From IMG/VR virus record IMGVR_UViG_3300043464_002149: a stretch of DNA of 64,000 nucleotides; one strand, 5' to 3'. Positions 207 through 33,960 of this stretch are shown piece after piece. A program made the translations under genes and the position numbers. Below the pieces are notes generated by a model. It made no database searches and had not been told where the DNA came from. It was given only the letters and a program-made list of their open reading frames with translations. How positions within the stretch are numbered: position 1 is the stretch's first letter; each line of letters opens with the position of its first letter. This DNA comes from a virus. Its lineage: Duplodnaviria > Caudoviricetes.

Positions 207-872
207 TTATTTACTTACTAAAAATATACCTAAACCATTCCAAAAATCACTGGAATCTTCACCGGAAGTATATAATTGTCTTGAATGTAAAATCGACAAA
301 TTGTTTTCGTCAACAAACTTTTCAAACGCACCACTATCCCAATTCCAATCGTCCATGATTATAATTGTTTCATTTGATATAATTGGTAGGATATTCTTTA
401 ACGCGATGTATTGATCATGAAATTTAGTTTCACCATCATAAAAAATAATATCTGGATTGGATAAAGTTTTGAAATCAAATAGCTGATAATCAGTTTTATA
501 TACAGATATCTTATCTACATCACCAAACTTTTTCACGTTAGATAAGAACTCTTCTTGTGGTAGCACGTCAATGTTATGTTTATAATAATTCCCCATTTTT
601 TGACTCACACCTTTTGGTGTTAAGTTGGGTGACATAAAGTTATCAATACCTATTGCATAGATATCGTTACCATAAATTGCTGAACAAAATGTTGCACCAC
701 GAAACACACCTATCTCTAGATATGTTGCACCATCAATATTGCAAATGTTATTTAAAAAACATTTAACCTTATTGCTTGTGATTCCATGAATATCTAAAAT
801 GTCTTGAGTTAATTTTGATACTTCAAGTTTACCCCATTCAATTGAATCGTCTATATGTTTAATTAAGTCCAT
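207..872 (-). CDS. Class I SAM-dependent methyltransferase (Methyltransf_24-like)
   Basis: Motifs YLEIGVFRGAT, DIIFYDG and IIIMDDW. The likely start is MDLIK at 872, overlapping the upstream stop, rather than 905. Confidence 0.8.
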   Translation of the reverse strand: MDLIKHIDDSIEWGKLEVSKLTQDILDIHGITSNKVKCFLNNICNIDGATYLEIGVFRGATFCSAIYGNDIYAIGIDNFMSPNLTPKGVSQKMGNYYKHNIDVLPQEEFLSNVKKFGDVDKISVYKTDYQLFDFKTLSNPDIIFYDGETKFHDQYIALKNILPIISNETIIIMDDWNWDSGAFEKFVDENNLSILHSRQLYTSGEDSSDFWNGLGIFLVSK

Positions 873-4418: not shown

Positions 4419-4462
4419 TGTTTTGTTATAATATAAGTAATTTTTTTTGAATTATCAACTAT
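4419..4462 (-). promoter_or_regulatory. Putative sigma70-like promoter upstream of the 4410 gene
   Basis: The minus strand reads TTGATA-17 nt-TATATT. Confidence 0.5.
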
Positions 4463-5571: not shown

Positions 5572-5583
5572 TTTATTTATAAT

Positions 5584-6690
5584 TTATGCTCTCCAACCAC
5601 AATGTCCAGAAGATGTTCCACCATTAACGCCGGGTGCTAATCCACTTACGCTGGTGGTTCCTGTATCCGTTGTGTAGCTGAATTTCCAACTTGTATTATT
5701 TTGTGCGCCATCATAATTACCTAACATATATTGATGATCCTGACCCATTGTGAAATTTTCTTCTCCACAGTTTGGATGTGGTTTTGCCACATTACCAATA
5801 TTAGTGTCGCTGGCATTGCTCCATCTTCTTAAGTTATATCCGCCACTATATGACCCTTCATTTCCCGCATATCCTTTACCAACTTTTGAGCTAATCCCCT
5901 TTTGTTGCGCGTGTGCTGACCAATGAACAGATGATGAAAATGTTTCAGACGCAAAACTAAACTTGATACCTTCGCTAGATGTCCAACCGTATCCAAAGTT
6001 TTCATCAGAAAATGCACTACCACCATCACTACCATTTATTGTTGTTAAATTGAACCCAGTCATAATTGTTTCATTACTTAAATCAAATTTGTCAACAATA
6101 GAACTACCAGCGGAAAACATGTATGCAAATTCTGTTTCTTTATGCATAGTAGCAACATCGCTCCTTGCGGTTGTTATGTTAAACTTAGTTTGGTGTGTAT
6201 ATTTGGTATCATTTGCCATATTAATTGCTGATGTTCTAACACCATTAACATCACTTGGTCCTTTAAATGCATTATCTTCATTAACGGACCAAACAAAAAA
6301 GATATATTTACTACAAGCCCCCGAAGTATATGATGCAGCGTAATCTAATAGTTCACCAATATGTGTTGTTTGATCAGTAGAATTAATTGTTTTATGAACA
6401 TTCTTCCATGGTGATGAGTTTTTGTAACCACCAGCTAAATAGGAAACACTAATTATTTGTCTAAATTTAAAACCAACATTTGAGTTAACTTGGGAAGAAA
6501 CTCTAACCCACCCATTATCCCCATTATTTAAACCGGTATAAACCATTAAAAAACTACCACTTGCCGCTTCTTCAAGATATAGTGATCCTGTAACAGGACT
6601 TCCCGGTCTGTTTGCTCTCGAACCTCTAGGTGGTTTTGATACCCCCTGAACTCTTAATGAACCACTAATTTCTATATTGTCATGACGCAT
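5584..6690 (-). CDS. Tail-associated beta-propeller-like protein, paralog 2
   Basis: Shares QQKGISSKxGKGYAGNEG, HPNCGEENFT and the SSGHCGWR C-terminus with its neighbours. Confidence 0.6.
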   Translation of the reverse strand: MRHDNIEISGSLRVQGVSKPPRGSRANRPGSPVTGSLYLEEAASGSFLMVYTGLNNGDNGWVRVSSQVNSNVGFKFRQIISVSYLAGGYKNSSPWKNVHKTINSTDQTTHIGELLDYAASYTSGACSKYIFFVWSVNEDNAFKGPSDVNGVRTSAINMANDTKYTHQTKFNITTARSDVATMHKETEFAYMFSAGSSIVDKFDLSNETIMTGFNLTTINGSDGGSAFSDENFGYGWTSSEGIKFSFASETFSSSVHWSAHAQQKGISSKVGKGYAGNEGSYSGGYNLRRWSNASDTNIGNVAKPHPNCGEENFTMGQDHQYMLGNYDGAQNNTSWKFSYTTDTGTTSVSGLAPGVNGGTSSGHCGWRA

Positions 6691-6708
6691 ATCCTATAAA
6701 TAGTTTTT

Positions 6709-7842
6709 TTAATTTCTCCATCCACAATGTCCTGATGATGTTCCTCCGTTAACACCCGGTGCTAATCCAGATGGGTTAACAGTTCCAGTATCGGTAGCAT
6801 AAATAAATTTCCAGCTTGTGTTATTTTGTAAACCATCATAATTTCCTAACATATATTGATGATCTTGGCCCATGGTGAAATTTTCTTCACCACAGTTTCC
6901 ATGTGGTTTTGCCACATTACCAATATTTGTTTCATTAAACACATTCCATCTTCTTAAGTTATAACCACCATTATAATTACCTTCATTTCCCGCATATCCT
7001 TTACCCCACTTGGAACTAATTCCCTTTTGTTGCCCACTGGCCCCCCATTGTTGATTATTAGTGAAGGTATCAGTTGCAAAGAATAGTTTGTTACCACTTT
7101 CCGATCCATAACCATAACCATAATTTTCATCAGAAAACCCAGAACAACCTAATGAACTGGTGATAGATGTTTTTAATGTTAGATATGGTGCCATATTAGG
7201 GTAATAAACACTATACATAACTTCGTTGGTTGAATTGAATTTTTCAACAGTTGCAACACCTCCCCCAAATACCCAAGCAAATTCTGTTTCTTGAAATAAA
7301 GTTCCTAAGTCATCTCTTGCATTTGCTAAATCCCATTTAGATTGGTGAGCATAAGCCGTTTCATTTACCATGTTTACTCCCGTTGTCCAAGTTGAATGTA
7401 TTTGTGTTGCGGATTTCCAGGCACCATCTGTGTTTGTTGACCAAACAAATAAAATAGTTTTACTACAATGACCAGATGTATATGATGCTGGATAATCCAT
7501 CAATTCTCCTAAGTGAACAGTTTGATCCGTTGCATTTGTTGTTCTATGAACATTTTTCCAAGGAGATGCATCTTTATAACCACCAGCCAAATAAGAATAA
7601 TTAATAATTTGTCTATATAAAAAACCAATTCTATCCGTGTTTTGTGAACCAACTGGTTCCCATCCATCATCTCTATTAGATACTGCGGTATATGTTACAA
7701 CAAAACTTCCACTATCAGATTCTTCAAGATAAAGAGACCCAATTTCTGGGCTTCCTGGTCTATTGGCTCTGGGTCCTCTGGGTATAATATATTGTCCACT
7801 AACATCTAATGAGCCACTAACAATTACATTTTCTCTTAACAT
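6709..7842 (-). CDS. Tail-associated beta-propeller-like protein, paralog 1
   Basis: Same motifs as the two downstream paralogs; ends SSGHCGWRN. Confidence 0.6.
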   Translation of the reverse strand: MLRENVIVSGSLDVSGQYIIPRGPRANRPGSPEIGSLYLEESDSGSFVVTYTAVSNRDDGWEPVGSQNTDRIGFLYRQIINYSYLAGGYKDASPWKNVHRTTNATDQTVHLGELMDYPASYTSGHCSKTILFVWSTNTDGAWKSATQIHSTWTTGVNMVNETAYAHQSKWDLANARDDLGTLFQETEFAWVFGGGVATVEKFNSTNEVMYSVYYPNMAPYLTLKTSITSSLGCSGFSDENYGYGYGSESGNKLFFATDTFTNNQQWGASGQQKGISSKWGKGYAGNEGNYNGGYNLRRWNVFNETNIGNVAKPHGNCGEENFTMGQDHQYMLGNYDGLQNNTSWKFIYATDTGTVNPSGLAPGVNGGTSSGHCGWRN

Positions 7843-15537: not shown

Positions 15538-16185
15538 TTAAATTATTCCTGTGAATGGAGATTCCCCTTTGTTTAGTCTTACTCTAAATGAATCGGATAA
15601 AATATATCTTTCATATAAGGTATCGTTTAGGTCCACACCAATATAATCTAAAATATCTTTAAGTGTTGTTTTATCCCTATTTACATATATATCCTCAAAA
15701 TATACTATTGGGTAACCCCTATCAGATATCTCATGTAATTTCTTAGATTCTTCATTAAATATATTTTTTCTATACTCAACGTGCCCCTCTTCAATACCAT
15801 CAAAATCATAGTATTGTCTTTTATGCCAAGTACTTGTTTTACCTTTAATTGCGTGATATGTAAAACTCTCACTTTGTGAGGTTTTATCTTTCCTATCTAA
15901 AATTATGATTTTTTCAAAATATTTAAAAAACCAATCCCAATATGCCTCGTCATTACCTATTAGTTCTTTTGGTCTATGAATTTCACTAAGAAATGTTTTT
16001 ATAAAAACATTGTTCTTATTATTATAAAAATCCGGACTGTAAACATTTCTGTTTAGTTTTTCATGTAAATATTGGTTGAATGGTTCGATGTGGCATATAT
16101 ATCCAATCGGTTCTAGATGCTCTCGTATTAAATGAAAAAGAGTTGTTGAGCCAGTTCGTTCACTTGTTAATATCGCTATTCTCAT
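15538..16185 (-). CDS. Sulfotransferase (P-loop 5'-PSB type)
   Basis: N-terminal LTSERTGSTTL 5'-PSB loop and IILDRKD 3'-PB-like strand. Confidence 0.7.
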   Translation of the reverse strand: MRIAILTSERTGSTTLFHLIREHLEPIGYICHIEPFNQYLHEKLNRNVYSPDFYNNKNNVFIKTFLSEIHRPKELIGNDEAYWDWFFKYFEKIIILDRKDKTSQSESFTYHAIKGKTSTWHKRQYYDFDGIEEGHVEYRKNIFNEESKKLHEISDRGYPIVYFEDIYVNRDKTTLKDILDYIGVDLNDTLYERYILSDSFRVRLNKGESPFTGII

Positions 16186-16916
16186 ATAATAGATTTAGAT
16201 CGTTTAACGACCCCATCAATATATCTATCAACAAATTCCACCAATTCCGGTGTTCTTGTTACTGCACAATAATCTAAATTCGTCTTATTTTTATATATTA
16301 ACTTAAAATCAACATTAAATTTATTTGACATATAATCTTCAAGTTCTTTTAAATTATTAAAATCAAACTGTTTAACAATAACTTTATCATTTGTAATCCA
16401 TTGATACTGTGAAACAAAACTAAAGATATGTACGGTATATCTTTCTATAAATCCCCCATCTATAGGGTATTCTTTTGAGATACCTAATTTATCAACTAAT
16501 TTAATTAGTAATGATTTTCTAGATTCAAGTGAGTTATATGCATTGCAAAATTCTAAATGATTTTCTTTTATAAAATTGATTATAAACTCATTACCTACGT
16601 TTTTAATTTTTTCGCCTAGAGTACTATTAATTGAGTTTACCATAGCCTCTACGAAATATTTCCAAGCAGATATGAATCTGTCTGTAGAATCTCTAATTAT
16701 GGCTATATATTCAAAATTAGTTCCAAATCTTTCTAATAAATCATTTATAGTTGAGTGGAGGTGTTTTTCCGTATTTTTATAATCCGACTTTAACTGATTC
16801 TCCCAAATCTTACTTGGATATTTTAAATCAAATTCATATTCAACGCATGTATGTTCCATAGACCAAGACGCGTTTTTAGGTATTGGTATAAATACCACTT
16901 TATCATCAATAACCAT
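16182..16916 (-). CDS. Sulfotransferase family 2-like protein
   Basis: FIPIPKNASWS and IIRDSTDRFISAW match the HIPKxAxxS and xRDPxxRxxSxY/W patterns. Confidence 0.7.
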   Translation of the reverse strand: MVIDDKVVFIPIPKNASWSMEHTCVEYEFDLKYPSKIWENQLKSDYKNTEKHLHSTINDLLERFGTNFEYIAIIRDSTDRFISAWKYFVEAMVNSINSTLGEKIKNVGNEFIINFIKENHLEFCNAYNSLESRKSLLIKLVDKLGISKEYPIDGGFIERYTVHIFSFVSQYQWITNDKVIVKQFDFNNLKELEDYMSNKFNVDFKLIYKNKTNLDYCAVTRTPELVEFVDRYIDGVVKRSKSII

Positions 16917-16926
16917 TTTATTTTTT

Positions 16927-17043
16927 TTACTGAGTTACGTCTGCGTATATGAGTGTTGCAACTTCTTGCATTATAGTTGCAACATTAGTGTTGGTTGTTG
17001 CGCTTGTTAATACAACTTCGCTAGATATTATTTTTGGTTTCAT
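16927..17043 (-). CDS. 38-aa small ORF
   Basis: Hand-translated MKPKIISSEVVLTSATTNTNVATIMQEVATLIYADVTQ; it fills the gap between genes and has an A/T-rich leader. Confidence 0.5.
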   Translation of the reverse strand: MKPKIISSEVVLTSATTNTNVATIMQEVATLIYADVTQ

Positions 17044-17065: not shown

Positions 17066-18601
17066 TTATTTCTGCGGTCCCGGTGAATCACAAAACCAAC
17101 ATTGGTCACAACACCAAACGGCACATGTCCATGAAGCACACCAACTAAAACAAGCACCATTGTGTTGTATAAATGTTAACCCGAGCGATTCATCAGCAAC
17201 TGGTAAAAATATATCATTTAATTCTACGTTTATGTCATATACTCTTCTAGTTACATAAACAATCCCCAGATTGATTATTTTAGATTTAATTAATGTATTA
17301 TTTACATAATCAAAAAATATAATTGAGTCATTTATTCTAAATTTATTAGTATAAGCAAATGTGGTTTCTAAGGTATCATATTCTTCAATCATCATTGAAC
17401 TTCCCGGTAAATCTTCATAAACTATACCATTTTCCAAAGTTACTTTAATCATTAATGATTCTCTTGTTTGACCACCTAAATCAATAACAGTTGATGACCC
17501 TGTCGAAAATGTGGTTAAATCAGATGAGAATACCCCTGAATTAATGTCAGGGATATACTGAACTTCTCCTGTTTCTGAAGTTTCATTTTCGGGAACCCAT
17601 GTTAAATTAATGGTTTTAATAAGATCGTTTACTAAAATTTCGTTAGGGTGTTTCAAAGTTCCGTCAGCATACAAAATTGGGGTGTCATCATCTAAAAAGT
17701 AACTTGGCCCAAAATTTCTAAATGTCGGGGATTTACTCATCCATAATGGTCTAGCGTCCTGATTCATTTTACCGTTAGAATCGTATGTGGTATCCCAACT
17801 ATTGAATTTAACAGGACTTGTCATTATGTATGAACCTAAATGTAAACAATCAAGATTACCTCCATATATAATATCTAAACTTCTGATTACCCCCATTTTA
17901 TCATTTACGATGTTTTCTGAATTTGTATGAAATTCTTCCATAAATTCATGATCCATTAATGAGCTTTTTAAGGTTTCGAGGTTAGCTAAAGAATCTATCT
18001 TGTAAAATTTAGGGTAGTCAATATAATTTGTGTTTGGAAATCTAGTTTTTACAATGTAATTTGGGGTTGTCCCTGGTGTTATATGTAATTCATTTAACTG
18101 GTCAATGTTTAATGACGGTTCTGATTCTGAATTATAGTATACATTTGGGGTATATGGTTTTTCTGATATTAACCTGTGAAAATTTACCTTATCTTTAGCA
18201 TATTCTTCATCCACAACAGCTGTAGTATCATAAGATGTTCTAATAATTAAAATACCATTTCCGTCTTCAATATGTGGCACCGTTATTGAATTTTTAGCAA
18301 CTTCATAATGTGTGAATGTACCATTAATTTCAGACATTATTTCTGACATTTTATCTTTTAAACTAACATTTATAGATGTAGTATCAAATACGTTTTCTTT
18401 CTCATTATTGATAAAATTACCGTCTGTTGATATAAAATGTAAATTAACAATTGAGTTGTCTAATAAAAATTGCTTAAAGGTTCCCCAATCCAAGTCAGGT
18501 ACAATTTTATTGTGAACGTCAACATTCGTATTTGTCTCAACTATTCGTAAGTCACCATTATCATCTTTTAAGAAGTCAGTGCCTAATATAAGTGCTTTCA
18601 T
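17066..18601 (-). CDS. Circularly permuted ATP-grasp-like domain + Hint domain + 30-aa Cys/Trp-rich C-terminal peptide
   Basis: N-terminal GTDF...LRIVETNTN and YIVKTRFP...FMEEF are ATP-grasp-like. Hint blocks are FLDDDTPILYADGTLK (A), RRVYDINVE (F) and IQHN (G), followed by GACFSWCASWTCAVWCCDQCWFCDSPGPQK. Confidence 0.7.
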   Translation of the reverse strand: MKALILGTDFLKDDNGDLRIVETNTNVDVHNKIVPDLDWGTFKQFLLDNSIVNLHFISTDGNFINNEKENVFDTTSINVSLKDKMSEIMSEINGTFTHYEVAKNSITVPHIEDGNGILIIRTSYDTTAVVDEEYAKDKVNFHRLISEKPYTPNVYYNSESEPSLNIDQLNELHITPGTTPNYIVKTRFPNTNYIDYPKFYKIDSLANLETLKSSLMDHEFMEEFHTNSENIVNDKMGVIRSLDIIYGGNLDCLHLGSYIMTSPVKFNSWDTTYDSNGKMNQDARPLWMSKSPTFRNFGPSYFLDDDTPILYADGTLKHPNEILVNDLIKTINLTWVPENETSETGEVQYIPDINSGVFSSDLTTFSTGSSTVIDLGGQTRESLMIKVTLENGIVYEDLPGSSMMIEEYDTLETTFAYTNKFRINDSIIFFDYVNNTLIKSKIINLGIVYVTRRVYDINVELNDIFLPVADESLGLTFIQHNGACFSWCASWTCAVWCCDQCWFCDSPGPQK

Positions 18602-18634: not shown

Positions 18635-19264
18635 TTAAATTAAACTCTTTGATTTTTTCACATATTCAAAGCCAACATTACCCGCAATAACAACTCTATC
18701 TTTTGTTGAATTTGGTGATTTGTCAGGTGAATGTGGTAAAAACCCTTCCATTATTAGTAGATCCCCCTCCTCAGGAAGATAATAATACCTATTTCCGTCA
18801 TTTCCCCCAATTATTAATGTACCTTCTGTATCTAGTAAATTATTTGGCATTTGAACATAATATACAAAAGTGTATGTTGGGTGAAAAGAATTAACGAGTT
18901 TTTGTAAATCAATGTGGTTGTGTAAAGTAACCTCGCCCCCTCTTTTAAAATCGTCTTGCTTTGGTTTTCCCTTTTTAACAATATTAATCCAGGAATTGAC
19001 GTTAGTTTTATTAAAAGGTGAAATGTCCACACTCCTTAATTCGTAACAACTTTGTACCCCAAATTTAATTATTTCTTCAATAGAATTGGTTGGTTTCATT
19101 TCGTTTTGAAAATCAAAGCTCGACCAATCTCCCATGTAAGCGTAGTTATCTTTTGGTGAGTATGAGCTTGATTTTAAAAATACATTAACATCATCAATGA
19201 CATTTATTGATTGTATTTTTGTTTTATATATGACAACGTTTTTTTCAAAAACTATTTCTTCCAT
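18635..19264 (-). CDS. 2OG-Fe(II) oxygenase-like protein
   Basis: HNH...FVYYV...EGDLLIMEGFLPHSP...RVVIAGN jelly-roll motifs. Confidence 0.7.
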   Translation of the reverse strand: MEEIVFEKNVVIYKTKIQSINVIDDVNVFLKSSSYSPKDNYAYMGDWSSFDFQNEMKPTNSIEEIIKFGVQSCYELRSVDISPFNKTNVNSWINIVKKGKPKQDDFKRGGEVTLHNHIDLQKLVNSFHPTYTFVYYVQMPNNLLDTEGTLIIGGNDGNRYYYLPEEGDLLIMEGFLPHSPDKSPNSTKDRVVIAGNVGFEYVKKSKSLI

Positions 19265-19268
19265 TAAA

Positions 19269-19559
19269 CTAAATTATGGTTTTTTTTTTGATTTTTAAAT
19301 GGTTCACGTAACTATCCTCAATAATTTTCCACTTACCTAATGGACATGAGCCATATTCATTTGTAAATATTTTTTCATTTATTGGGCACCCACAAGGGCC
19401 GCAATAATGCAACCATTCTTTGTTATGTATCCCTTCTTTTCTAAATTCACATTTTAAACAAAAATCGAGTCTTTCTTTTGCTAATTTTAATCCGGTCTCA
19501 TCGGGATTAAAAGTTATTATACCTAAATTAATAATTTCTATAGGATCGAATTTCATCAA
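19269..19559 (-). CDS. Small Cys-rich metal-binding protein (DUF6171-like)
   Basis: CLKC...CGPCGC...K...CPLGKW pattern. Confidence 0.6.
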   Translation of the reverse strand: MMKFDPIEIINLGIITFNPDETGLKLAKERLDFCLKCEFRKEGIHNKEWLHYCGPCGCPINEKIFTNEYGSCPLGKWKIIEDSYVNHLKIKKKTII

Positions 19560-20212
19560 ATTAACGTTTTTTTATTCCCATCCAATAAATTAATATTCCC
19601 TGCTACCGATATTCTTTCAACCCCATCACTAAAAAATGGTGAAACATAGTGAGTTAAGTATGATGGAAAAATAAACATTTCTCCGTTTGATGGTAAATGT
19701 GATATTTGTGTTATTGGTGAGATAAAAGAATTAACAATATTAATAAATTGATTATTATTTAGTTCATTTTTTTTTATATTTTGACCATACATAAAAGATA
19801 TACTACCATTTTTAAACCCCCTCTCAATGCTTGGCTCCGATTTAATTTTTTCAGGTATGTCTACATATATAACAAATGAAATGTCTGAGGAATGAAAATG
19901 TGGTGAGTTAAAATCTTTAGTTTTTTGAAAATTGATCCATAAATCTTCAAGATGATATTTGAAATTGTAATTTGGTTGTTTTCTGTGTTTCCCAATTTCA
20001 TTAATATAATTCTCAATAAATACAAAAATTCTATCCTTAAAATAGGAAACATTTTCTGAACTATACTTAAATGAGGAATTAAAAGATATTGATTTTATTT
20101 TTTCATTAATTAGTTGTTCATTTTTACCAACCAATAATAGTTCTTCACATAATTGCATATCGACATTAACGCTCATCAATTCTGGACCAAAATTATACTT
20201 TTTAAATTCCAT
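19556..20212 (-). CDS. 2OG-Fe(II) oxygenase-like protein (TIGR02466-like)
   Basis: WINFQ...NSPHFH...SFVIYV...GEMFIFPSYLTHYV...RISVAGN. Confidence 0.8.
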   Translation of the reverse strand: MEFKKYNFGPELMSVNVDMQLCEELLLVGKNEQLINEKIKSISFNSSFKYSSENVSYFKDRIFVFIENYINEIGKHRKQPNYNFKYHLEDLWINFQKTKDFNSPHFHSSDISFVIYVDIPEKIKSEPSIERGFKNGSISFMYGQNIKKNELNNNQFINIVNSFISPITQISHLPSNGEMFIFPSYLTHYVSPFFSDGVERISVAGNINLLDGNKKTLI

Positions 20213-20772
20213 TATATTAATGTTTTTTTATGATTTTCAATCTTCTTTAATTTTAACCAACTAACTAACGAATATCTAGTACCCGATTCTATTGGCATTA
20301 CTCTATGAAAGACGTTCGACGGGAAAATATATAAATTACCGGCACCAAATTCCATTTTAGTTTGTTTATTATTTATTATCAATTCAAAATCACCCCCAGT
20401 GTAATTTTCATTTAATTGGATTACAATAGTATAGAATCTATCCTTAAATATTGTGTCATTAGAGTCTATGTGCCAATCAAAATAATCTCCCACATTATAT
20501 TTTGTAAATTGAAATGTTTCAATAGAGGGTTCAAAACCTTTTATTTTAACTTTTTCCATTACTTTTGAAAGCGTTATATTATTAATATGTCCTAGGTCAT
20601 CAATAAATGCAACCTTTGATTTTCGAGTTTCTTTTTTATTTAATTTAATAAGCTCAATTTCGGAATATGTTTCAGCGTCTAACAAATCAAGTTCATCTAA
20701 ACATTTTTTTATTATCGCCCCACATTCTTCTTTAGGTAAAAATTCAGTAATGGTGTATATATTATTGATCAT
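20212..20772 (-). CDS. Prolyl-4-hydroxylase-like 2OG-Fe(II) oxygenase
   Basis: QFTKY...WHID...YTGGDF...FPSNVFHRV...GTRYSLVSW. Confidence 0.85.
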   Translation of the reverse strand: MINNIYTITEFLPKEECGAIIKKCLDELDLLDAETYSEIELIKLNKKETRKSKVAFIDDLGHINNITLSKVMEKVKIKGFEPSIETFQFTKYNVGDYFDWHIDSNDTIFKDRFYTIVIQLNENYTGGDFELIINNKQTKMEFGAGNLYIFPSNVFHRVMPIESGTRYSLVSWLKLKKIENHKKTLI

Positions 20773-20773
20773 T

Positions 20774-20980
20774 TTATTTTTTTAACCCGAATTTTATCCA
20801 TTTATACCAAACCCTTTCATGTAAAAAATATATAATTGGTTTTAATACAAGTTCACCTAAACCAACCATACCAGCCCACTTTAATGGTAGTCCAGCAGAT
20901 ACTGTTAAGATTATTGTAGTTAAAGTACCTACAAATCTGTAACTAATACTTTTAGCTATGTGTCGTTTTACCTGTGGCAT
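20774..20980 (-). CDS. DUF2061-like small membrane protein
   Basis: KSISYRFVGT...YFLHERVW signature. Confidence 0.8.
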   Translation of the reverse strand: MPQVKRHIAKSISYRFVGTLTTIILTVSAGLPLKWAGMVGLGELVLKPIIYFLHERVWYKWIKFGLKK

Positions 20981-21317
20981 CTATTTCTCCTTTTCTAATT
21001 TTAGTTCCGCTTATTTCAGCAATTTCTGTAGGTGGTTCGTGGTATATTACTTCATACCCAACACCCCTACCATAATTAACAGATTCAATATCTGGGATAA
21101 TAGATATCATGATCTTATCCCAATTATTTTGAAAGAATGGTTCGTTTTGTAACATGAATAACACTTCTTGTGCTGTTTTGGGGTTATTTTCATCAACTTG
21201 CACATCTCTAATTGCTACCCAAACGTTTTTCCCTTTGTTTAATTGTTGGTTAATCAACCATTCGTGTCCAGCATGCCAATTTTGCCATCTCCCAATGTAA
21301 ATTGCATATTTTTTCAT
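20952..21317 (-). CDS. HxGH nucleotidyltransferase (cytidylyltransferase/ATP-sulfurylase superfamily)
   Basis: GRWQNWHAGH and ISGTKIR (HIGH/KMSKS-like) motifs. Confidence 0.75.
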   Translation of the reverse strand: MKKYAIYIGRWQNWHAGHEWLINQQLNKGKNVWVAIRDVQVDENNPKTAQEVLFMLQNEPFFQNNWDKIMISIIPDIESVNYGRGVGYEVIYHEPPTEIAEISGTKIRKGEIDATGKTTHS

Positions 21318-21748
21318 GGTAATATAATATTAAGTAATTTATTAGTGGTTTCTTCTATTGTTTGATTTGTGGTATCTAGATCCAAATAATTTTCAGTAGG
21401 TGGATCATAGTCATTAACTGCAAAATGTTCTCTACCTCTAATTTCGGTGGTGTAAACATAAATTTCTGTAACCTGATTTTCAGATTTAAAGTTTTCTCTT
21501 TGATCTTTATAGGGAGAAACTAATGAAACAACAACCGAATACCCCTTGATACTCAAGAACTTAGCAATATCCTGTGCTCTTTCGATGTTTTTACGCCTAC
21601 CTGCTTCGGAATAATCTTTATTTTTAAAAATATCACGTAGATCATCACCGTCAATATGAACGGTAGTTTCAGCTGGAAGATGTTTTATTAATTCTAGCGC
21701 TAAGGTTGTTTTCCCTGATCCGGGTTGACCTGTAAACCAATATATCAT
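21314..21748 (-). CDS. cysC: Adenylyl-sulfate (APS) kinase
   Basis: WFTGQPGSGKTT P-loop, IDGDDLR, RRKNIER, VSLVSPY, YDPP. Confidence 0.9.
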   Translation of the reverse strand: MIYWFTGQPGSGKTTLALELIKHLPAETTVHIDGDDLRDIFKNKDYSEAGRRKNIERAQDIAKFLSIKGYSVVVSLVSPYKDQRENFKSENQVTEIYVYTTEIRGREHFAVNDYDPPTENYLDLDTTNQTIEETTNKLLNIILP

Positions 21749-21784: not shown

Positions 21785-22930
21785 TTAAATCATACCTCTA
21801 TTATAGAACCTAAAACCAGTTACCTTTTCATATAATTTTTCACCCGGAGATAGGTTTGGTAACCCCAAATTCAAATCTTGGTTTTTAATTATAAAATGTT
21901 CATTGATTTTATATAACCAATCAACACCAAAATTATGTGCTATTTGACCAATAACAAGACATTGAATTATTGGTGACCATTTGTGATGACTTAAATGCCA
22001 TATACCGCCAAAATCATGATTAAAAAAGTCTTTTAAGCCATATAAACTTTCTATTGTATGCTCATTTCTTCTTAGATCTACACCACCACAACAATCACAA
22101 GTGAAATTTTTATCTAAATGGTTTTTAAAAGTTAATGGAAATGTAAAATCGTTTTCAAGATAGGTGCCACTTTTACGTTCTTGTAATATCTGGAAAAACC
22201 ACTTATCACATAAAAACGCTTCGTTATTTTTAATGCTATTATAATAATCATCACTTATCTCCATCAAATTTAGATGTATCATAAGTTGTTCCACATAGCA
22301 AGCCCCATAACCTTTATCATAGGAATCTATTTTTTCTTTGTTCTTATAATAATGATCTAATGATCTTTCGGTAGCTTCAGCGAATAATTCATAATCATTA
22401 ACACATAATAAATTCATATTAGGTACTTCCCCCACAAAGAAATTTTTAATTTTATTTTCACTGTGTTGATCTTTAAAATCATTAAATGGAAACCCATATG
22501 CATTCATTGAGCTAATTAAATAGTCATTGAATCCTTTTGGGGTTGTGTTTGGGCCCAGATCTGGAAAGTCCTTATGTGCATAAATGACTGGTAGATCAGA
22601 TTTGAAATCTATTTTTTTAGTTAACATTGTATCAATATCAATATGTAAAAATCTTTCAGACATCGCTTTAAAGACTTTCATTTTAACAACACTAAACGTA
22701 TTTACATCTGTTTTTGATAAAACATCAACATCAATGTTCTCATATGGTATCCCAATTTCTTGAATTTGTTTGGCTATAGTTTCATTGGTATATAATGAAA
22801 TCTTCCCGTAGTTCTTATTTGTAAAAAGAGTACTTAAGACCTGTGAATATATCATTTCTTTCCATATGATTTGAGTATATGGTATATCCAAATTAAAATT
22901 GCTTGGTATGTAGCTATGGACAATCTTCAT
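21785..22930 (-). CDS. DUF6734-like DxD protein (putative glycosyl/nucleotidyl transferase)
   Basis: LYTN, FLHIDIDT DxD motif, CYVEQ; related to the next ORF. Confidence 0.5.
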   Translation of the reverse strand: MKIVHSYIPSNFNLDIPYTQIIWKEMIYSQVLSTLFTNKNYGKISLYTNETIAKQIQEIGIPYENIDVDVLSKTDVNTFSVVKMKVFKAMSERFLHIDIDTMLTKKIDFKSDLPVIYAHKDFPDLGPNTTPKGFNDYLISSMNAYGFPFNDFKDQHSENKIKNFFVGEVPNMNLLCVNDYELFAEATERSLDHYYKNKEKIDSYDKGYGACYVEQLMIHLNLMEISDDYYNSIKNNEAFLCDKWFFQILQERKSGTYLENDFTFPLTFKNHLDKNFTCDCCGGVDLRRNEHTIESLYGLKDFFNHDFGGIWHLSHHKWSPIIQCLVIGQIAHNFGVDWLYKINEHFIIKNQDLNLGLPNLSPGEKLYEKVTGFRFYNRGMI

Positions 22931-23871
22931 TAAATTATTTTCTTATTAAATTTACCAATTTCTTTTTTATATTCATCAACCCTATATTTTCTATATTCTT
23001 CGTTAAGTTTTAATGCGTGTTTATTAAACCATACATGTTCATAATTTAAATTTTCAACGTGGTCTATTCTGTTGGGGTCTTTCAACCAAAATAAAGCTTT
23101 ACCTGGTGCTGGTGCATCACCTATAGTGTGTGATTCAGAATATGACATATATATATTATTCTCAATACTCTCCACTTTAGCGTTTAACTTTCTAATAGCA
23201 TAACCTAGTATTCCTTGATCTGCAATTAACCATAACCATTCTGGAATATACTCATATTCTCTTGTGATTATATCTAAATGTCTTCTTAAATAATCGTCCC
23301 TTAATGACTCACTATTCATAAAAATAAATGATGTATTTGGTATAAACATGTTTTGATTAAAATCTTCAATTCCACCAATTCTATTAATTTGATTTTCAAA
23401 AACAAAAAACTCGCCTCTTTGAATTTCCCATTGTGTATGAACCAAATCGTAATTCCACACCCAACTAGGCATTTCACTTCTAACAATGAAATCTAAATCT
23501 AGAAATAGATATGGTACTGGCTCTTTACCCATAACAATAGATTTACCGGTAGTCCAAAATCTACCCGGTTCAATGTATGAGTATTCTTTATTGAATGTTT
23601 CTAAAACATCCGTATCTACTTCATCCCATAATCCCAACATTCCTTTTTTCTTATAAAATTCATACCCAACATTATCAGTGTATAATTTTGTTACCCCTAC
23701 ATACTTTTTCGCGTTTCTTACTGCTAATTCCTGTATAACTAATTCATAATCAACAATATCATATTCATCGTCGGGTAAATCAAACATTTTCATTCTATTA
23801 TACCCTTGAGCATCATTCTTGTGAAAAAATGGTGCGGTCCAATTAACAAAGATTACTTTTAAATTATTCAT
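22930..23871 (-). CDS. DUF6734-like DxD protein (putative transferase)
   Basis: KLYTD, W..GK, PYLFLDLDF, ADQGIL. Confidence 0.5.
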   Translation of the reverse strand: MNNLKVIFVNWTAPFFHKNDAQGYNRMKMFDLPDDEYDIVDYELVIQELAVRNAKKYVGVTKLYTDNVGYEFYKKKGMLGLWDEVDTDVLETFNKEYSYIEPGRFWTTGKSIVMGKEPVPYLFLDLDFIVRSEMPSWVWNYDLVHTQWEIQRGEFFVFENQINRIGGIEDFNQNMFIPNTSFIFMNSESLRDDYLRRHLDIITREYEYIPEWLWLIADQGILGYAIRKLNAKVESIENNIYMSYSESHTIGDAPAPGKALFWLKDPNRIDHVENLNYEHVWFNKHALKLNEEYRKYRVDEYKKEIGKFNKKII

Positions 23872-25133: not shown

Positions 25134-25844
25134 TTATATTTCAATATTAAAATTAATTACACATCTATGGGTTTTACCATAGAATGGTTTAACTGAATGT
25201 ATAATATCAGCCGGCCACATCATTAACATACCTTTTTTAGGTCTTATAAAGTGAGACATTCCTCTGATATGAAACGTAAAAACACCACTGTATGGATGAT
25301 CTGCGATTGGCTCACCATCTGATAAATAATATCCACCAACAAAACTTAAAGGTGCTGATTCATAAATAGACCACCTACAATGGTTGTGTTGATTATGTCC
25401 TCTTCCAGAAGTTGGCTCATAATATTGTATCCAACTTTCTGTCACCTTTGGGTTGTTGTTATGTTTAAAATTTAATAAATTTAAAAAATCAATAAAACCA
25501 TCTGTACATCGTTTCTTAATTAGTTTAACACATTCTTCTTCTCTATCTAAAAACTCATTTGTGGGCACAAGAAAACGACTACCTATTGGGTTGAATTCTG
25601 TCGGTTCAACCCATTTATCATGTTTACCATAATTTATTTCATATGTACTTTGTCTATCCTGATCATATTGTTCAGGTAATTCTTGCCCCATTAATTTTTG
25701 TTCGGGTGTTAACTCATTAAACCCTAAATTATAAACCAAATCATGTAAATCATGATCATCAAATTGTTTCATGTATACTGGTATGGGGGCTAAAAGATAT
25801 AGATTGTCTTGACCGCTTGGCCAAAGTGGATTGTGAAAATACAT
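25134..25844 (-). CDS. 2OG-Fe(II) oxygenase-like protein (TIGR02466-like)
   Basis: ESWIQYY...HNH...PKKGMLMMWPADIIHSV...RCVINFN. Confidence 0.7.
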   Translation of the reverse strand: MYFHNPLWPSGQDNLYLLAPIPVYMKQFDDHDLHDLVYNLGFNELTPEQKLMGQELPEQYDQDRQSTYEINYGKHDKWVEPTEFNPIGSRFLVPTNEFLDREEECVKLIKKRCTDGFIDFLNLLNFKHNNNPKVTESWIQYYEPTSGRGHNQHNHCRWSIYESAPLSFVGGYYLSDGEPIADHPYSGVFTFHIRGMSHFIRPKKGMLMMWPADIIHSVKPFYGKTHRCVINFNIEI

Positions 25845-27037
25845 TAGCTTAATTTTAAAATATTATATGTTATTGGGAATATATCTTTAAATTTTTGATC
25901 CCTAGATTCATCTAGTAAATTATTTATTTTAATAAATGAATTCCAGTCCTGTTCTGTTGATTCTTTACTATTAAGGTATTGCGTAATATTTGTAAATTGT
26001 TCTTTAATTTCTGGGCTTTTTACCGGTAAACTATTATAAGATTCATTAACATATTTTTCAATATCTATTTTTAAGTTTTCTGGAATATTGTTTATGCAAT
26101 AGTATTTTGGTTGTGATAAAAAGTTACAATGTATTCGAATATTATTCTCAATTGCAAATTCAGCGACTTCGTTAAAATCTAGGACATTCATAATTGAAAC
26201 TGTGTAACAAATATGAAACTTGAAATTTTTTAAATCTTTTGTTTTATCTAACCATAATAAAATATTATTTTTTACTTCATTCCAGTTTGCACCATATCTT
26301 AAATAATTAAATTTATCACCAACACCGTCTATACTAAATGAAATATCAGAAAGCTCAAAGTTTTTTAATATTTTAAAATATTCATCTTTAAAAATAGTAC
26401 CATTAGTGTTAAAATGAACATACTTATTTTTAGCAATACCAGTATATACACATTTTTCTAAAATGGACCATTGTTTTTTCATTAACATTGGTTCACCACC
26501 ATATAGATCAAGTATTTTTACTGATGATATATTTTTTTCAATTTCATCCCAAACCATACTGTCGTCAGCAAATGGTAAAGAACAAGATTTTGTAATCTGA
26601 TTTAGTTTTTCATCTGAAATATCTGGGTTTAGAACTGATTTATGTTCTTTTTTCCAGTTTGAAGATGAATATACATTACAAATTCTACAGGATAAATTAC
26701 ATATGTTACCCATGTTAAGTTCTAAAAAATGAATTTCGTTTTCTGATAAATTTAAATGTGAAATTCTTTGATTATCTCTCATCCTTTTACTTTCAACCCC
26801 AGAATCTTCTAAATCCCAACAGCCGTTACATTCGGGAGATTTAATTCCTTTTTTAAAATCTTCTTTTATTTTTTTTAATGTGGGAGATTGTTGTGCTTCT
26901 TGAAATGTGGTGTTTAAAACACTCATAACATTATCCCCATCATCTTTAAGATACACTTCACTTGCAATACAACATGGTGTAAACTTCCCGTCTGTTGTTA
27001 CTCTCAAACCATTAGTTATGTTTGCACACTTAATCAT
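25844..27037 (-). CDS. Radical SAM protein with N-terminal twitch/SPASM-like domain
   Basis: N-terminal C...PCC...CNGC, then CNLSCRIC and GGEP. Confidence 0.9.
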   Translation of the reverse strand: MIKCANITNGLRVTTDGKFTPCCIASEVYLKDDGDNVMSVLNTTFQEAQQSPTLKKIKEDFKKGIKSPECNGCWDLEDSGVESKRMRDNQRISHLNLSENEIHFLELNMGNICNLSCRICNVYSSSNWKKEHKSVLNPDISDEKLNQITKSCSLPFADDSMVWDEIEKNISSVKILDLYGGEPMLMKKQWSILEKCVYTGIAKNKYVHFNTNGTIFKDEYFKILKNFELSDISFSIDGVGDKFNYLRYGANWNEVKNNILLWLDKTKDLKNFKFHICYTVSIMNVLDFNEVAEFAIENNIRIHCNFLSQPKYYCINNIPENLKIDIEKYVNESYNSLPVKSPEIKEQFTNITQYLNSKESTEQDWNSFIKINNLLDESRDQKFKDIFPITYNILKLS

Positions 27038-27038
27038 A

Positions 27039-28061
27039 TTATATTGTTAAATTATGTCTTATTCTTTCAGTTTTTGGTAGCTGATTATATATTTCCAAGA
27101 GATTAGAATATTCAGGGTGGTTTGGATTACCAATATCTGTTTTTTCAAAATGTTCGGGGGTATATGTCCCCCAATTAACAACCCTATTATAAAAAACTGA
27201 CCAGTTCTTCTTTTTCATTGAGAATATATTTTTAACCATGTCATAGAATAACCCCATCTCTTTATAATTTTCATATTGAACAACAAAAGATAGTGTTATA
27301 TCGTGTAGATATGGTAAACTAGAAATGAAATCTAGGTTACTTTGTATATCTTCCCATTTACCTCCGATTCTAACTTTATTCTCATATGTTTCTTTAGTCG
27401 CTGAATCAACAGATATCTCACAACTACGCACGTATTTGTGAATGTTTTTCATTCTTGACCAGTTAGAATCATTCCATAATGTTCCGTTGGTGTGTAAATG
27501 TATCTTTTTAAGTTTTGGGTATTTGTTAAAATCGAAACCCATCATCCATTTTCTAAATGTTCTAGAAAAAAACGGGTCGCCAGATCCTGTACATTCAATA
27601 TGTTCTAAACCGTTACTTAATTCTTTTTCTATGTGCTGTATTAATTGTTCGGTCCTTTCTCTTTCTTCACCTTCATAATTAATAAATTTGGTTCTACACG
27701 ATGGGCACTTTAGGTTACAACTTTGATCAAAATTCATTTTGATACTGGTTGGAAGACCGGTATCGTATTTTTCTCTATTTTTTAAAAACTCATCTTTTTT
27801 AACAAAACCATGTGTTTTACCTTCTTTAAGACCGGTTAGTTTAGGACATCTTGATTCAATACAAAATTTATAGGAACCATCTAACATACTTTGTCTAACC
27901 TGTTCCGCAATATCTGATTTCCAATTAGTTTCAATAGACATTGGGTCACCCAAATTAACAGGTAACCAATTAGGACAACACATAAATGTTTTATGGTCAA
28001 ATAACTCTGAAAAGTTAAATGGTTGTGTACATACCCAATCTTTCTTATCTAATGGTATCAT
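27039..28061 (-). CDS. Radical SAM protein with N-terminal twitch/SPASM-like domain
   Basis: CTQPF...MCC...C...CP, then CNLKCPSC and GSGDPF. Confidence 0.9.
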   Translation of the reverse strand: MIPLDKKDWVCTQPFNFSELFDHKTFMCCPNWLPVNLGDPMSIETNWKSDIAEQVRQSMLDGSYKFCIESRCPKLTGLKEGKTHGFVKKDEFLKNREKYDTGLPTSIKMNFDQSCNLKCPSCRTKFINYEGEERERTEQLIQHIEKELSNGLEHIECTGSGDPFFSRTFRKWMMGFDFNKYPKLKKIHLHTNGTLWNDSNWSRMKNIHKYVRSCEISVDSATKETYENKVRIGGKWEDIQSNLDFISSLPYLHDITLSFVVQYENYKEMGLFYDMVKNIFSMKKKNWSVFYNRVVNWGTYTPEHFEKTDIGNPNHPEYSNLLEIYNQLPKTERIRHNLTI

Positions 28062-29371
28062 GTTAAACTTGGATAGCCTTTTTTCTCCATTAAAAATGTC
28101 TTATCATCAATTGTAGATTCAATCTCATCAAACCAATCTTTATACTGTGGATTTACTTCTAAAAATGACTCATTTCTTCTATTATCTAATATATATGTTG
28201 ATCTAAATAAGTGTCTTCTGGCATCTTGAATATCCCCTTCAAATGGTGTATACAAGTGTTTTTCCCAACCATCCTTTGCTTGTTTAACAATACTTCTAGT
28301 ATAACTGTCACCAATTGTTTCTATGTAGGTATTCAGTTTATTAATCAAACTAGTTTTTAAGTTATCTGGTAAAATTCTAATATCATACCACATCGGAGAT
28401 GTTAATAAATTATTTAAAGAAACCGTACTAGGGTTGACGCCAATACTTATAGCCATATCAATTAATTCATTGATGTGAAATATGTTTAAGATACTAATTG
28501 TGGGAGATATGTGGACTTCCATTCCTTTATCAACACAAGATTTAATGTTTTGATAAACCGCATTCCATTTTGTTCCATTTCTAACAACTTCAGCTAATTT
28601 ACCAACAGCATCTAAAGAAGCGAATAGAAAAATTCTACCTTTTGGATCTTTTAAGAAGTGATCCCATAAACCATGTAAATCCCATTTTTTAAAATGTATA
28701 TGGCTGAAATTTGTGTTGTATCTAATTCTAACATCAGTTCTACCTGCAGCTATTAATTTTTCCAAAATAATATAATGTTCATCCATTATAAGCGGCTCTC
28801 CACCAGCAAAATAAATTTCTTCAACCTCATTTATAAATTGATCAACATATTTGAATATATCTTCTTTACTATCAATATTAAAATTGATCACCCCGTTGTT
28901 ATTTACGTGAGTTCCAAATAGTGCAGCTTCATCATCATACCATTTACTACTGGAAAATATGCCACACATTCTACACTTAAAATTACACATATTGGACCAT
29001 CTGAAATCCCAATATTTTAGTACGAACTTATCATTATGCCCAGTTTCCTTATTTGTCTGGCTTATTAATTCATTAATACCATCATTGAAAAAATAGTTAT
29101 GTGTTTTTCTTGGGCTTAATAAACCGCTATCCTCAATTAAAAAACATCTTTCGCATAGTTTAGGTCTGTTACCGGATAACATATCTTTTCTAATGCTCAT
29201 CATCTGTTCATTGTTCCAGATTTCTTCTAATGTATTATCTTTAGTATTCCCTATAGGCATACCATATGGTGCCATACAGCAAGGGTATATGTCACCATTG
29301 GGTTGTATATTTAAATGTATCCAAGGTAGTACACAAAATGTGTTTGATATATTTTCTGAATTATTAATCAT
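28058..29371 (-). CDS. Radical SAM protein with N-terminal twitch/SPASM-like domain
   Basis: CVLPW...PCC...CERC, then CNFKCRMC and AGGEP. Confidence 0.9.
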   Translation of the reverse strand: MINNSENISNTFCVLPWIHLNIQPNGDIYPCCMAPYGMPIGNTKDNTLEEIWNNEQMMSIRKDMLSGNRPKLCERCFLIEDSGLLSPRKTHNYFFNDGINELISQTNKETGHNDKFVLKYWDFRWSNMCNFKCRMCGIFSSSKWYDDEAALFGTHVNNNGVINFNIDSKEDIFKYVDQFINEVEEIYFAGGEPLIMDEHYIILEKLIAAGRTDVRIRYNTNFSHIHFKKWDLHGLWDHFLKDPKGRIFLFASLDAVGKLAEVVRNGTKWNAVYQNIKSCVDKGMEVHISPTISILNIFHINELIDMAISIGVNPSTVSLNNLLTSPMWYDIRILPDNLKTSLINKLNTYIETIGDSYTRSIVKQAKDGWEKHLYTPFEGDIQDARRHLFRSTYILDNRRNESFLEVNPQYKDWFDEIESTIDDKTFLMEKKGYPSLT

Positions 29372-30603
29372 ATTATTTTTTTATTTAAAATATCTTTTAT
29401 TTTTGGGAACGTTTGTAGGAAGCTTTCACTTCTTATTTTATCAACTTCGCTTGTTACTTTTAAAAACGTGTTCATTTCTCCATTCTCTTTAGCATTGTAA
29501 TAAACACTATACAAATCATTATAATATTCATCACTAATTTTACCTTTTATTTCATCTATTTTTTTTCTTCTTACCTCTATTGGAAATAAATTAGCATTTT
29601 GATATGCTGGTGAAAAGACATGATTAGGAACTAATCTATATATTTTTCCAGTACCATCTAATTTATACAATCCCTCTGCAATTAGAAATTGAGCTAGTTC
29701 TTCAATATATAAAAAATTGAAAGCATTAACCGTTTGTGTAACTGATATATAAAAATCATATTCGTTTAGAAATCTTTTTAAGTTTGTTATTGTAAGCTCC
29801 CAATTACTTAAACTTCTAATAAAAGTGTTTCTATCTTTAACATCATCGATACTAACAGATATGGTGACATTGTTAAATGATTTTAATTTTTCTAACGTTG
29901 GTTTAATTGAATCAAAATTGTAATTAGCATTGGTTATGTAAGAAATTGTGGCATTTTTTGCGTACCCCTCACCAACCATTTTTTCTATCAGATAGTTGTG
30001 TTTTGGTACAAGAAATGGTTCACCACCACTAACCTGTATTAAATTTAAATCTGGGGTGTGTTTTACCAAATCGTCATAAAATTCTGCTTTGTCAGTCCAA
30101 TCATAACTTGTCCCCTCACTGTTTTTTAGAACATCATATGATGAAGGTAATGGTACAATATCTTTTAATTTATAATAATCCGTAATCCACGATGTACTCG
30201 ATTCAGCATTACAGGATCTGCATTTAAAGTTACAGTAATTACCCAGCCTTAATTCAACGTTCGTTAGATTTGGTTTAATGCTACCATCTTCATTTATTGA
30301 AATGTCAATAGGTGTTCTGGATTCCTTAATTCTTTTTGATATGTCGCCGTTCTGTTCTACATTATAACAAGTTAAACAAGCTTTAGGTATTTCACCATTT
30401 ACCATTTGCTTTCTAACTTTTTTAAAACTATCGGAATTGATAATTTTTTCAACACCTTGTTCAATGTTAAGCATTTTACCGTCTGTTTTAGCGAAAGTTT
30501 CATCAGCCCCCCAATTAGCTTCACAACATACAGAACAATGACCATGTGGGTGTACACTAATGTGGTTCCATAATAAGTTGCATATGAATTTTTTATTTTC
30601 CAT
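29368..30603 (-). CDS. Radical SAM protein with N-terminal twitch/SPASM-like domain
   Basis: CNLLW...VCC...CLTC, then CNFKCRSC and SGGEP. Confidence 0.9.
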   Translation of the reverse strand: MENKKFICNLLWNHISVHPHGHCSVCCEANWGADETFAKTDGKMLNIEQGVEKIINSDSFKKVRKQMVNGEIPKACLTCYNVEQNGDISKRIKESRTPIDISINEDGSIKPNLTNVELRLGNYCNFKCRSCNAESSTSWITDYYKLKDIVPLPSSYDVLKNSEGTSYDWTDKAEFYDDLVKHTPDLNLIQVSGGEPFLVPKHNYLIEKMVGEGYAKNATISYITNANYNFDSIKPTLEKLKSFNNVTISVSIDDVKDRNTFIRSLSNWELTITNLKRFLNEYDFYISVTQTVNAFNFLYIEELAQFLIAEGLYKLDGTGKIYRLVPNHVFSPAYQNANLFPIEVRRKKIDEIKGKISDEYYNDLYSVYYNAKENGEMNTFLKVTSEVDKIRSESFLQTFPKIKDILNKKII

Positions 30604-30606
30604 AAT

Positions 30607-33957: not shown

Positions 33958-33960
33958 TTT

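Follow-up and report, generated by a model that had tools for sequence, protein, structure and literature searches.

Here, we describe a gene, P0001, that lies in a window of 64,000 nucleotides (the whole stretch of DNA that was analyzed) from the IMG/VR virus record IMGVR_UViG_3300043464_002149 (Duplodnaviria; Caudoviricetes). Its product is predicted to carry, in a single chain, an amide ligase of the ATP-grasp type, a Hint domain, and a short Cys-rich peptide. The parts of the gene, in the coordinates of the window, are as follows.

17066..18601, minus strand: whole gene P0001, 511 amino acids plus stop; predicted ligase-Hint-peptide fusion, with 100 homologs and 232 cluster representatives
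17717..18601, minus strand: predicted ATP-grasp-like amide ligase domain, residues 1-295, of the GspS/YgiC/glutathione-synthetase type
17159..17698, minus strand: predicted Hint domain, residues 302-481, with Phe at position 1 and no block-B His
17159..17164, minus strand: His480-Asn481, predicted site of Asn cyclization (cut between N481 and G482), from conservation and intein alignment
17069..17158, minus strand: tail, residues 482-511, 30 amino acids (17066-17158 with the stop)

A preliminary description of this DNA, made from the letters and a list of open reading frames (ORFs), had placed the Hint domain and the tail plus stop at exactly these positions. It had also given the tail, correctly by the translation, as 30 residues with seven Cys, four Trp, and Gly482 as the +1 residue.

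The window is AT-rich (~30% G+C) and holds 57 ORFs, with every gene on the minus strand. Three of the ORFs are giant (1866-2533 amino acids), and the virion structural proteins matched in PHROGs are consistent with a large tailed phage. Lake or freshwater metagenomes of no fewer than 13 studies contain the stretch, with ≥91% of its sampled words. In four metatranscriptome runs, contigs match parts of the gene body at ≥99% identity; please note that DNA carry-over is possible and that these matches are not counted as expression, while stretches without cover, the tail included, carry no meaning.

Two folds and a Cys-rich tail

An AlphaFold2 model of P0001, built with 70 homologs, has a mean predicted local distance difference test score (pLDDT) of 83.7 and a predicted template modeling score (pTM) of 0.77, with low confidence confined to the linker (residues 294-299) and the tail (pLDDT 32-55). 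In a Foldseek search of PDB structures, the Hint part matched the hedgehog autoprocessing domain 1at0 (E 1.7e-7, template modeling score 0.74 by target). VIA-align superposed it on the Npu DnaB mini-intein 4o1r with a Z score of 15.8 and a root-mean-square deviation (rmsd) of 2.2 over 139 of 142 residues (model range 299..481), and on other Hint structures with similar scores, namely BIL2 6tmm (Z 15.6), 1at0 (Z 15.3), and the bacterial intein-like (BIL) domain 2lwy of C. thermocellum (Z 15.1). Residues 302-481 are thus modeled as a Hint superfamily fold with the whole domain covered, and these scores bear out the call made in the preliminary description. Several inteins align their own residue 1 to Phe302 and their own last residue to Asn481, and we therefore take Phe302 as position 1 and Asn481 as the terminal Asn.

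The N-terminal part (residues 1-293) aligns, over 200-233 residues, with 3k1t (Z 9.3, 233 residues), YgiC 7uka (Z 8.8), GspS 2io7 (Z 8.1), eukaryotic glutathione synthetases (Z 7-8), and Cp1B 9cjn (Z 7.1), and Foldseek returned YjfC 7uk6 (E 1.7e-4). Its protein language-model neighbors are the ATP-grasp, TTL, GshA, and GSP_synth clusters. On the model, residues 1-295 adopt an ATP-grasp fold that is nearest to the GspS/glutathione-synthetase type. The preliminary description had identified the ATP-grasp domain, and these structural matches uphold the identification, but the scheme that it built left the role of the ligase unexplained. The alignments begin at model residue 1 for the GspS/glutathione-synthetase subgroup and at about residue 50 for RimK, LysX, and TTLL. 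Glutathione synthetase is known for a permuted strand order, and we infer from the model that the difference in starting point reflects this order, with E22-x-N24 at the very N-terminus.

Relatives of P0001 are numerous. A word-index search gave 100 homologs with identity down to 25%, and an exhaustive HMMER scan gave 232 cluster representatives (50% identity) at E ≤1e-3, of which 61 reached E ≤1e-30. Within IMG/VR the gene lies in 77 loci on contigs of up to 310 kb, and the family has been seen only in phage or metagenome DNA. The cultured phages of INPHARED, a collection from which near records may be missing, returned no match by Megablast or tblastn. A search of the cellular genomes of 185,579 species with three peptide patterns, which reach only fairly close relatives, returned none. 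The ligase-Hint pair is constant in all 208 full-length members, on which the conservation counts below are based (tail counts refer to 230 distinct short tails), and no other N-terminal domain was seen among them.

None of the Pfam, PHROGs, or NCBIfam families matches P0001, its tail, or the two small neighbors described below (a micro-ORF and a 96-residue protein). Pfam gave nothing for P0001 at E ≤1 save a chance Topo-VIb match, and the PT-HINT profile (PF07591) went unmatched. A profile of the family (A1) run against PDB sequences found the KlbA intein (E 0.0033), BIL2 (E 0.1), and biotin carboxylase (E 1.1); these matches are weak, and the domain calls therefore rest on structure. The preliminary description had proposed checking both domains by profile hidden Markov models (HMMs) and by structure prediction: structure confirms both, but the HMM libraries give no family.

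The residues that are kept, and those that are lost, can be read across the family. Within 302-481 the only His residues are H318, which is not conserved, and H480. The block-B TxxH motif is absent from the P0001 Hint, where the region reads YEDLPGSS (D397 and S401 being conserved), and the stretch that precedes His-Asn resembles intein blocks F and G by eye (VYD..VE..D.F...HN). Position 302 is I in 80 members, H in 32, L in 11, F in 9, T in 6, and Cys in none; at block-F position 463, 154 members have D and 32 have H; and the terminal pair is retained in nearly all (H480 in 199, N481 in 203). As for the +1 residue, the 230 tails have G (50), P (40), A (34), L and V (19 each), and others, with Cys in just four.

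Because position 1 is neither Cys nor Ser, and both the block-B His and a +1 nucleophile are missing, the Hint domain is predicted to be crippled, with splicing and N-terminal cleavage both ruled out on sequence grounds. The preliminary description had reached the same view from P0001, and it holds family-wide for position 1, which is never Cys, and for the missing block-B His. Asn cyclization alone yields C-terminal cleavage in inteins and BIL domains, and the P0001 Hint appears to retain only the equipment for this reaction, that is, for a predicted C-terminal cleavage. In three variants that lack a Cys tail, Tyr stands where His480 would be, and this links the His to the tail. A true intein was rejected, given that the nucleophiles are missing and no host protein surrounds the domain. 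Membership of the intein, BIL-A, and PT-HINT families was likewise rejected, since P0001 does not conform at position 1, in block B, or at the +1 residue and does not match the profile.

The polar core of the ligase domain is near-invariant (of the 208 members, D9 is kept in 201, E22 and N24 in 203 each, R121, D131, and K185 in 207 each, and R240 in all), and the domain is therefore probably active. E22-x-N24 resembles the Mg-binding E-x-N of ATP-grasp enzymes; the biotin carboxylase match noted above aligns the E-x-N region of that enzyme to the ligase domain at a non-significant E of 1.1.

The tail of P0001 has the framework C-x3-C-x4-C-x3-CC-x2-C-x2-C, four Trp, and a single Lys, which is the last residue (K511). 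Among 70 relatives C484, C493, C501, and C504 never change, and C488 and C498 rarely do. The first Cys beyond His-Asn (C484) is present in 188 of the 208 members, usually at +2 or +3. Within ten clusters formed at 90% identity, per-site diversity in the tail exceeds that in the body by a factor of 2-18, with 109 of 300 tail columns variable against 469 of 4744 body columns (odds ratio 5.2, Fisher p 8e-32), and the Cys positions stay unmoved while the loops vary. The preliminary description had expected a variable Cys-rich tail after a conserved His-Asn, which is what the homologs carry; the invariant tail that it set against its own proposal is not seen, the loops being hypervariable. Such loops on a fixed Cys scaffold point to a target engaged in an arms race.

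Among the 230 tails, the number of Cys is 6 in 137, 8 in 49, 7 in 32, and 10 in 9. No tail is free of Lys, and 169 contain a single one, which is the last or second-to-last residue in 119 of these. With Lys at 4% of residues and a median tail length of 31, about a quarter of the tails would be expected to be Lys-free by chance; Lys is therefore required. An acidic residue is missing from 58 of the 230. A graspetide was considered and rejected, given the many tails without acidic partner residues and a ligase fold nearer to the GspS/glutathione-synthetase type. The Cys patterns differ among clades (C-C-CC-C-C is one example), which favors disulfide-type mini-proteins over one shared metal site; a shared metal motif was rejected on the same differences.

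Not all members end as P0001 does. The C-terminal ends of the 208 are distributed as follows.

Short Cys tail: 113 members
Long Cys-rich tail: 42 members
Tail followed by a canonical Cys-first Hint: 19 members
Tail followed by Peptidase_S74: 18 members
Just 5-7 residues past His-Asn: 4 members
Other: 12 members

Pfam finds Peptidase_S74 in relatives (E 1.9e-5 in P0138; weakly in P0024 and P0029) and also supports the extra downstream Hints (PT-HINT, Intein_splicing, and Hint). The catalytic Ser of the S74 domain (Pfam profile position 1; residue 510 of P0024) is preceded by Lys, so predicted S74 self-cleavage would leave ...K, the same end as in P0001. P0001 itself ends at K511, and Peptidase_S74 (SD...K...GxIAQEL) is absent from it. 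Past the closing His-Asn of the extra Hints stand one to four residues, for the most part Lys, and in P0223 a Cys-rich peptide is flanked by two canonical Cys-first Hints. These variant ends fit a module that cuts something loose past His-Asn, often at both ends.

Two observations on the relatives can be added here. In P0223, P0220, P0226, and P0231, two or three canonical Hints stand in tandem behind the degenerate one. Just upstream of a distant homolog, on a phage-like contig, lies an IS605 OrfB/TnpB-like gene (Cas12f1-like_TNB; L005:8537-9682).

Conserved neighbors and a shared enzyme ending

The surroundings of the gene were compared over 82 loci, of which IMG/VR supplied 77, encoding contigs four, and a near record one, and the steady partners always share its strand. 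The neighbors found in the window, with the number of loci in which each family recurs, are as follows.

16927..17043, minus strand: micro-ORF, 38 amino acids, starting 23 nucleotides past the stop of the gene; 81 of 82 loci
19269..19559, minus strand: 96-amino-acid six-Cys protein, CxxC...CxxCGC...CP..KW, with the C-terminal tag described below; 76 of 82 loci
16182..16916, minus strand: sulfotransferase-like enzyme (Pfam Sulfotransfer_2, E 1.8e-5), ending ..KSII; 48 of 82 loci
15538..16185, minus strand: 215-amino-acid protein with no family match, ending ..GII without the full tag; 25 of 82 loci
18635..19264, minus strand: 209-amino-acid protein like 2-oxoglutarate (2OG) oxygenases, the second 2OG-like protein, ending ..KSLI; 35 of 82 loci
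19556-20212 and 20212-20772, minus strand: two 2OG-Fe(II) oxygenases (Pfam), both ending ..KTLI; the 186-amino-acid enzyme in 55 of 82 loci
27039..28061, minus strand: Twitch-first radical S-adenosylmethionine (SAM) protein, 340 amino acids (Pfam; NCBIfam N_Twi_rSAM at E 9.9e-16, below the cut-off); 34 of 82 loci
HxGH nucleotidyltransferase-like protein: 41 of 82 loci
DUF2061 membrane protein: 40 of 82 loci
Carbamoyltransferase: 23 of 82 loci
APS kinase: 21 of 82 loci

A micro-ORF of 24-52 amino acids starts 1-51 nucleotides past the gene in 81 of the 82 loci. It has a conserved, amphipathic, helical C-terminal half and a variable N-terminal half, and its three sequence classes track the clades of the main protein; in the clade of the window it is rich in Thr and contains a single Glu and a single Asp. 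In the 96-residue protein, C34, C37, C53, C56, C58, C72, W77, and K63 are invariant or nearly so. Its model is confident (pLDDT 86.8), it falls in virus-only clusters, and comparison with known folds gave nothing convincing (best Z 4.4). The Atlas offers a weak DUF6171 lead (15-30% of members in some virus clusters). A complex prediction for P0001 with this partner scored 0.29 against a mark of 0.32.

These two small proteins accompany the gene more tightly than any tailoring enzyme does, and the "one-gene system" of the preliminary description is accordingly too narrow. That description had also passed over the shared enzyme tag, the obligatory Lys, and the relatives with extra Hint or S74 domains.

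Among the tailoring enzymes, a P4H-like 2OG oxygenase of 186 residues occurs in 55 of the 82 loci, and a family member of the 209-residue protein matches 2OG-FeII_Oxy_3 (E 0.0021). The radical SAM array of the window (25844-37102, minus strand) has its SPASM/twitch domain at the N-terminus, and the 340-residue protein is the array member that most often accompanies the gene. The preliminary description had proposed a RiPP-like peptide, possibly matured by the adjacent radical SAM and oxygenase genes; by co-occurrence the radical SAM gene (34 loci) is the looser companion, and the 2OG oxygenase (55) and the sulfotransferase-like enzyme (48) are the steadier ones. A radical SAM enzyme as an obligatory partner was rejected, a whole clade (with long tails plus S74) being without it.

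Many of these enzymes end alike. Ten of the 57 window ORFs finish in [IL]I, where 0.65 would be expected (P 1e-9), and eight of the ten have the fuller ending K-x-K-[ST]-[IL]-I. The bearers are the sulfotransferase-like enzyme, three 2OG-type enzymes, the six-Cys protein, a radical SAM protein (29368-30603), and the ORFs at 22930-23871 and 31947-32588. Over the 82 loci, K-x-K-[ST]-[IL]-[IL] is found in 34-100% of the members of the tailoring-enzyme families (47% for the radical SAM family of 27039-28061) and in 5% of unconserved ORFs. It was found in no member (0%) of the families of the hub protein P0001 itself, HSP20, the carbamoyltransferase, the APS kinase, or the nucleotidyltransferase-like protein. 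The small-molecule enzymes of the island are thus without it. By its distribution, the tag marks a functional set to which some of the radical SAM array belongs. This lends a measure of indirect support to the link that the preliminary description suspected, although the tag does not show on what the set acts. The tag may be a signal for recruitment or ligation.

Some further features of the window are recorded here. The HxGH nucleotidyltransferase-like protein (121 amino acids; 20952-21317, minus strand) overlaps the APS kinase gene (21314-21748, minus strand), and its NCBIfam matches are NMN adenylyltransferase-like (E 3e-7, below the cut-off). It could supply an adenylyl-transfer step in a sulfate-activation pathway that feeds the sulfotransferase-like enzymes. 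Three tandem paralogs of ~370 amino acids (4459-7842, minus strand) share the ending ...SSGHCGWR with one further residue, and each of them matches phrog_1417.

What the system may do

The reading to which we give slightly better than even weight is that P0001 is the hub of an undescribed peptide-making island in large aquatic phages, in which the Hint domain would release a peptide and the ligase, together with the tagged enzymes, would modify it. Ligase, Hint, and peptide would be made as one chain, which folds. Asn481 would then cyclize, the step that we consider most likely, and the resulting cut between N481 and G482 would yield two products: a 481-residue ligase-Hint body with a succinimide at its end, and a free peptide of 30 residues whose alpha-amine is new. 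The ligase would most likely form a single amide bond on the peptide, while it is still tethered or once it has just been freed, and the site would be either the obligatory Lys or the new N-terminus. The tagged 2OG, sulfotransferase-like, and (in part of the family) radical SAM enzymes would probably modify this same product or else dock on the hub. The peptide would be a small mini-protein of the disulfide (or metal-binding) type, built on an even-numbered Cys scaffold, and once oxidized it would act outside the cell on a fast-changing target.

Several observations weigh against this proposal, and it is worthwhile setting them out together. Four members keep His-Asn with just 5-7 residues beyond it, and about five retain a Cys tail without the His; peptide release can therefore not be the whole story. 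The +1 residue is not conserved over the 230 tails. In P0235 and P0236, His-Asn is followed by 700-1200 residues with BACON domains, which suggests that the ligase-Hint module can carry large non-Cys payloads. The low confidence with which the tail is modeled (pLDDT 32-55) means that the model says nothing of its fold, and the ligase domain has no family match at sequence level (Pfam, PHROGs, NCBIfam, PDB). The radical SAM gene is absent from the whole clade with long tails plus S74. Finally, the neighbors lie in a region of fiber and glycan-modification genes, so the tagged enzymes could serve virion proteins instead.

Some of these points would also suit a different view, which we consider improbable, though less so than the other alternatives. 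The Cys tail would be a metal or disulfide module that stays in place, the substrate of the enzyme would lie elsewhere (virion fibers or the tagged neighbors), and the Hint would be a scaffold or a one-off switch for maturation or regulation. Spacings such as C-x2-C-x2-C could bind metal, the gene adjoins giant fiber genes and virion structural proteins, and the S74 domains of its relatives normally serve trimeric fibers; the short-ended members and the tailed members without the His also speak for it. However, His-Asn persists in ~96% of members down to 25% identity though the other splicing machinery has been lost, and the loops evolve at about five times the rate of the body, an unusual pace for a metal site inside a protein. 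The clade-specific Cys patterns have no common metal motif, and the tail is not packed on the body in the AlphaFold2 model.

Somewhat less credible again is that the gene follows the logic of polymorphic toxins. The Hint would free a fast-evolving mini-protein resembling a toxin or signal, the job of the ligase would be unrelated, and the neighboring enzymes would modify other targets. A Hint placed directly upstream of a hypervariable payload, which is swapped among relatives for short or long Cys peptides or BACON regions, is what such logic would predict, and the C-C-CC-C-C framework of some clades is typical of knottin-like peptides. On the other hand, the ligase-Hint pair is constant in all 208 members with no other N-terminal domain, and an obligatory Lys suggests chemistry on the peptide. 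Pfam and NCBIfam find no secretion or delivery domain in P0001, and the tail is not cationic.

The micro-ORF, as the most constant neighbor of all (81 of 82 loci), deserves mention as a possible substrate of the ligase, or as a missing piece of it, with the Cys tail then being secondary. Its Thr-rich composition with one Glu and one Asp in this clade would allow for a substrate, but a conserved helical half joined to a variable N-terminal half, the lack of a graspetide-like repeat motif, and the lack of any family match make us regard this as quite unlikely. A long shot of the same order is single-turnover peptide conjugation, in which the Hint exposes an amine or frees a Lys and the ligase joins the peptide to the carboxylate of the tag or to virion proteins, a ubiquitin- or Pup-like device drawn from an intein relic.

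If the proposed release and modification of a peptide by P0001 are correct, their interest goes beyond this one phage. The layout may be a new viral route to small peptides. Should the Hint cut as predicted, P0001 would be a natural enzyme that carries its own peptide and its own release device, which is a new logic for Cys-rich peptides. Alongside splicing and the release of hedgehog or toxins, it would be a third use of Hint domains, and could provide a compact self-cleaving module for biotechnology. The system is widespread, with 232 sequence clusters and contigs of up to 347 kb from lake and marine phages, and the ending common to enzymes of the 2OG, sulfotransferase-like, and radical SAM kinds suggests a code by which phage tailoring enzymes are recruited.

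Comparison with known systems

In the literature on Hint domains, ATP-grasp enzymes, peptides made by ribosomes and modified after translation (RiPPs), BIL domains in phage, and phage knottins, we found no description of this layout. Several known systems share parts of it.

The PT-HINT domains of bacterial polymorphic toxins (PF07591) also stand directly before a hypervariable, swappable payload whose autoproteolytic release is expected. A PT-HINT protein is among the AlphaFold DB neighbors of P0001, and relatives bear real domains of the PT-HINT/Intein_splicing type downstream. Unlike these, the P0001 Hint has neither a Pfam match nor a Cys at position 1. Its payload is a 30-residue Cys peptide rather than a toxin domain, the part upstream is an ATP-grasp-type ligase rather than a delivery or filament region, and the gene is phage-encoded.

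The BIL domains (2lwy; Tetrahymena BIL2 6tmm/6y75) and mini-inteins (4o1r; Mtu RecA 2imz) have the same fold (Z 15.1-15.8, rmsd 2.2-2.7), and P0001 shares with them the terminal His-Asn and a block-F-like motif. It differs in lacking the position-1 Cys or Ser, the block-B His, and the +1 nucleophile, and in not being inserted in a host protein.

With GspS (2io7), YgiC/YjfC, the glutathione synthetases, and fungal Cp1B (9cjn), P0001 shares the ATP-grasp fold (Z 7-9 over 200-233 residues), whereas its ligase is fused to a Hint and a peptide and has no sequence match in Pfam, NCBIfam, or the PDB.

Borosin precursors such as OphMA consist of a methyltransferase fused to its own C-terminal core peptide, and a separate protease is needed. 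As in borosins, one P0001 chain holds an enzyme and the C-terminal peptide on which it may act; the enzyme class is different, a built-in Hint would release the peptide, and there is no homology.

Finally, Peptidase_S74 normally matures trimeric phage fibers, and split-intein circular ligation of peptides and proteins (SICLOPPS; 5ol6) sets a peptide between intein parts. Relatives of P0001, though not P0001 itself, place an S74 domain (Ser, with Lys at +5) or a Cys-first Hint past the peptide, which would therefore be cut at both ends. P0001, by contrast, ends with its peptide, and the first Cys in the family is usually at +2 or +3 instead of +1. The relative P0223, with its order of Hint, peptide, and Hint, matches the intein-peptide-intein order of SICLOPPS.

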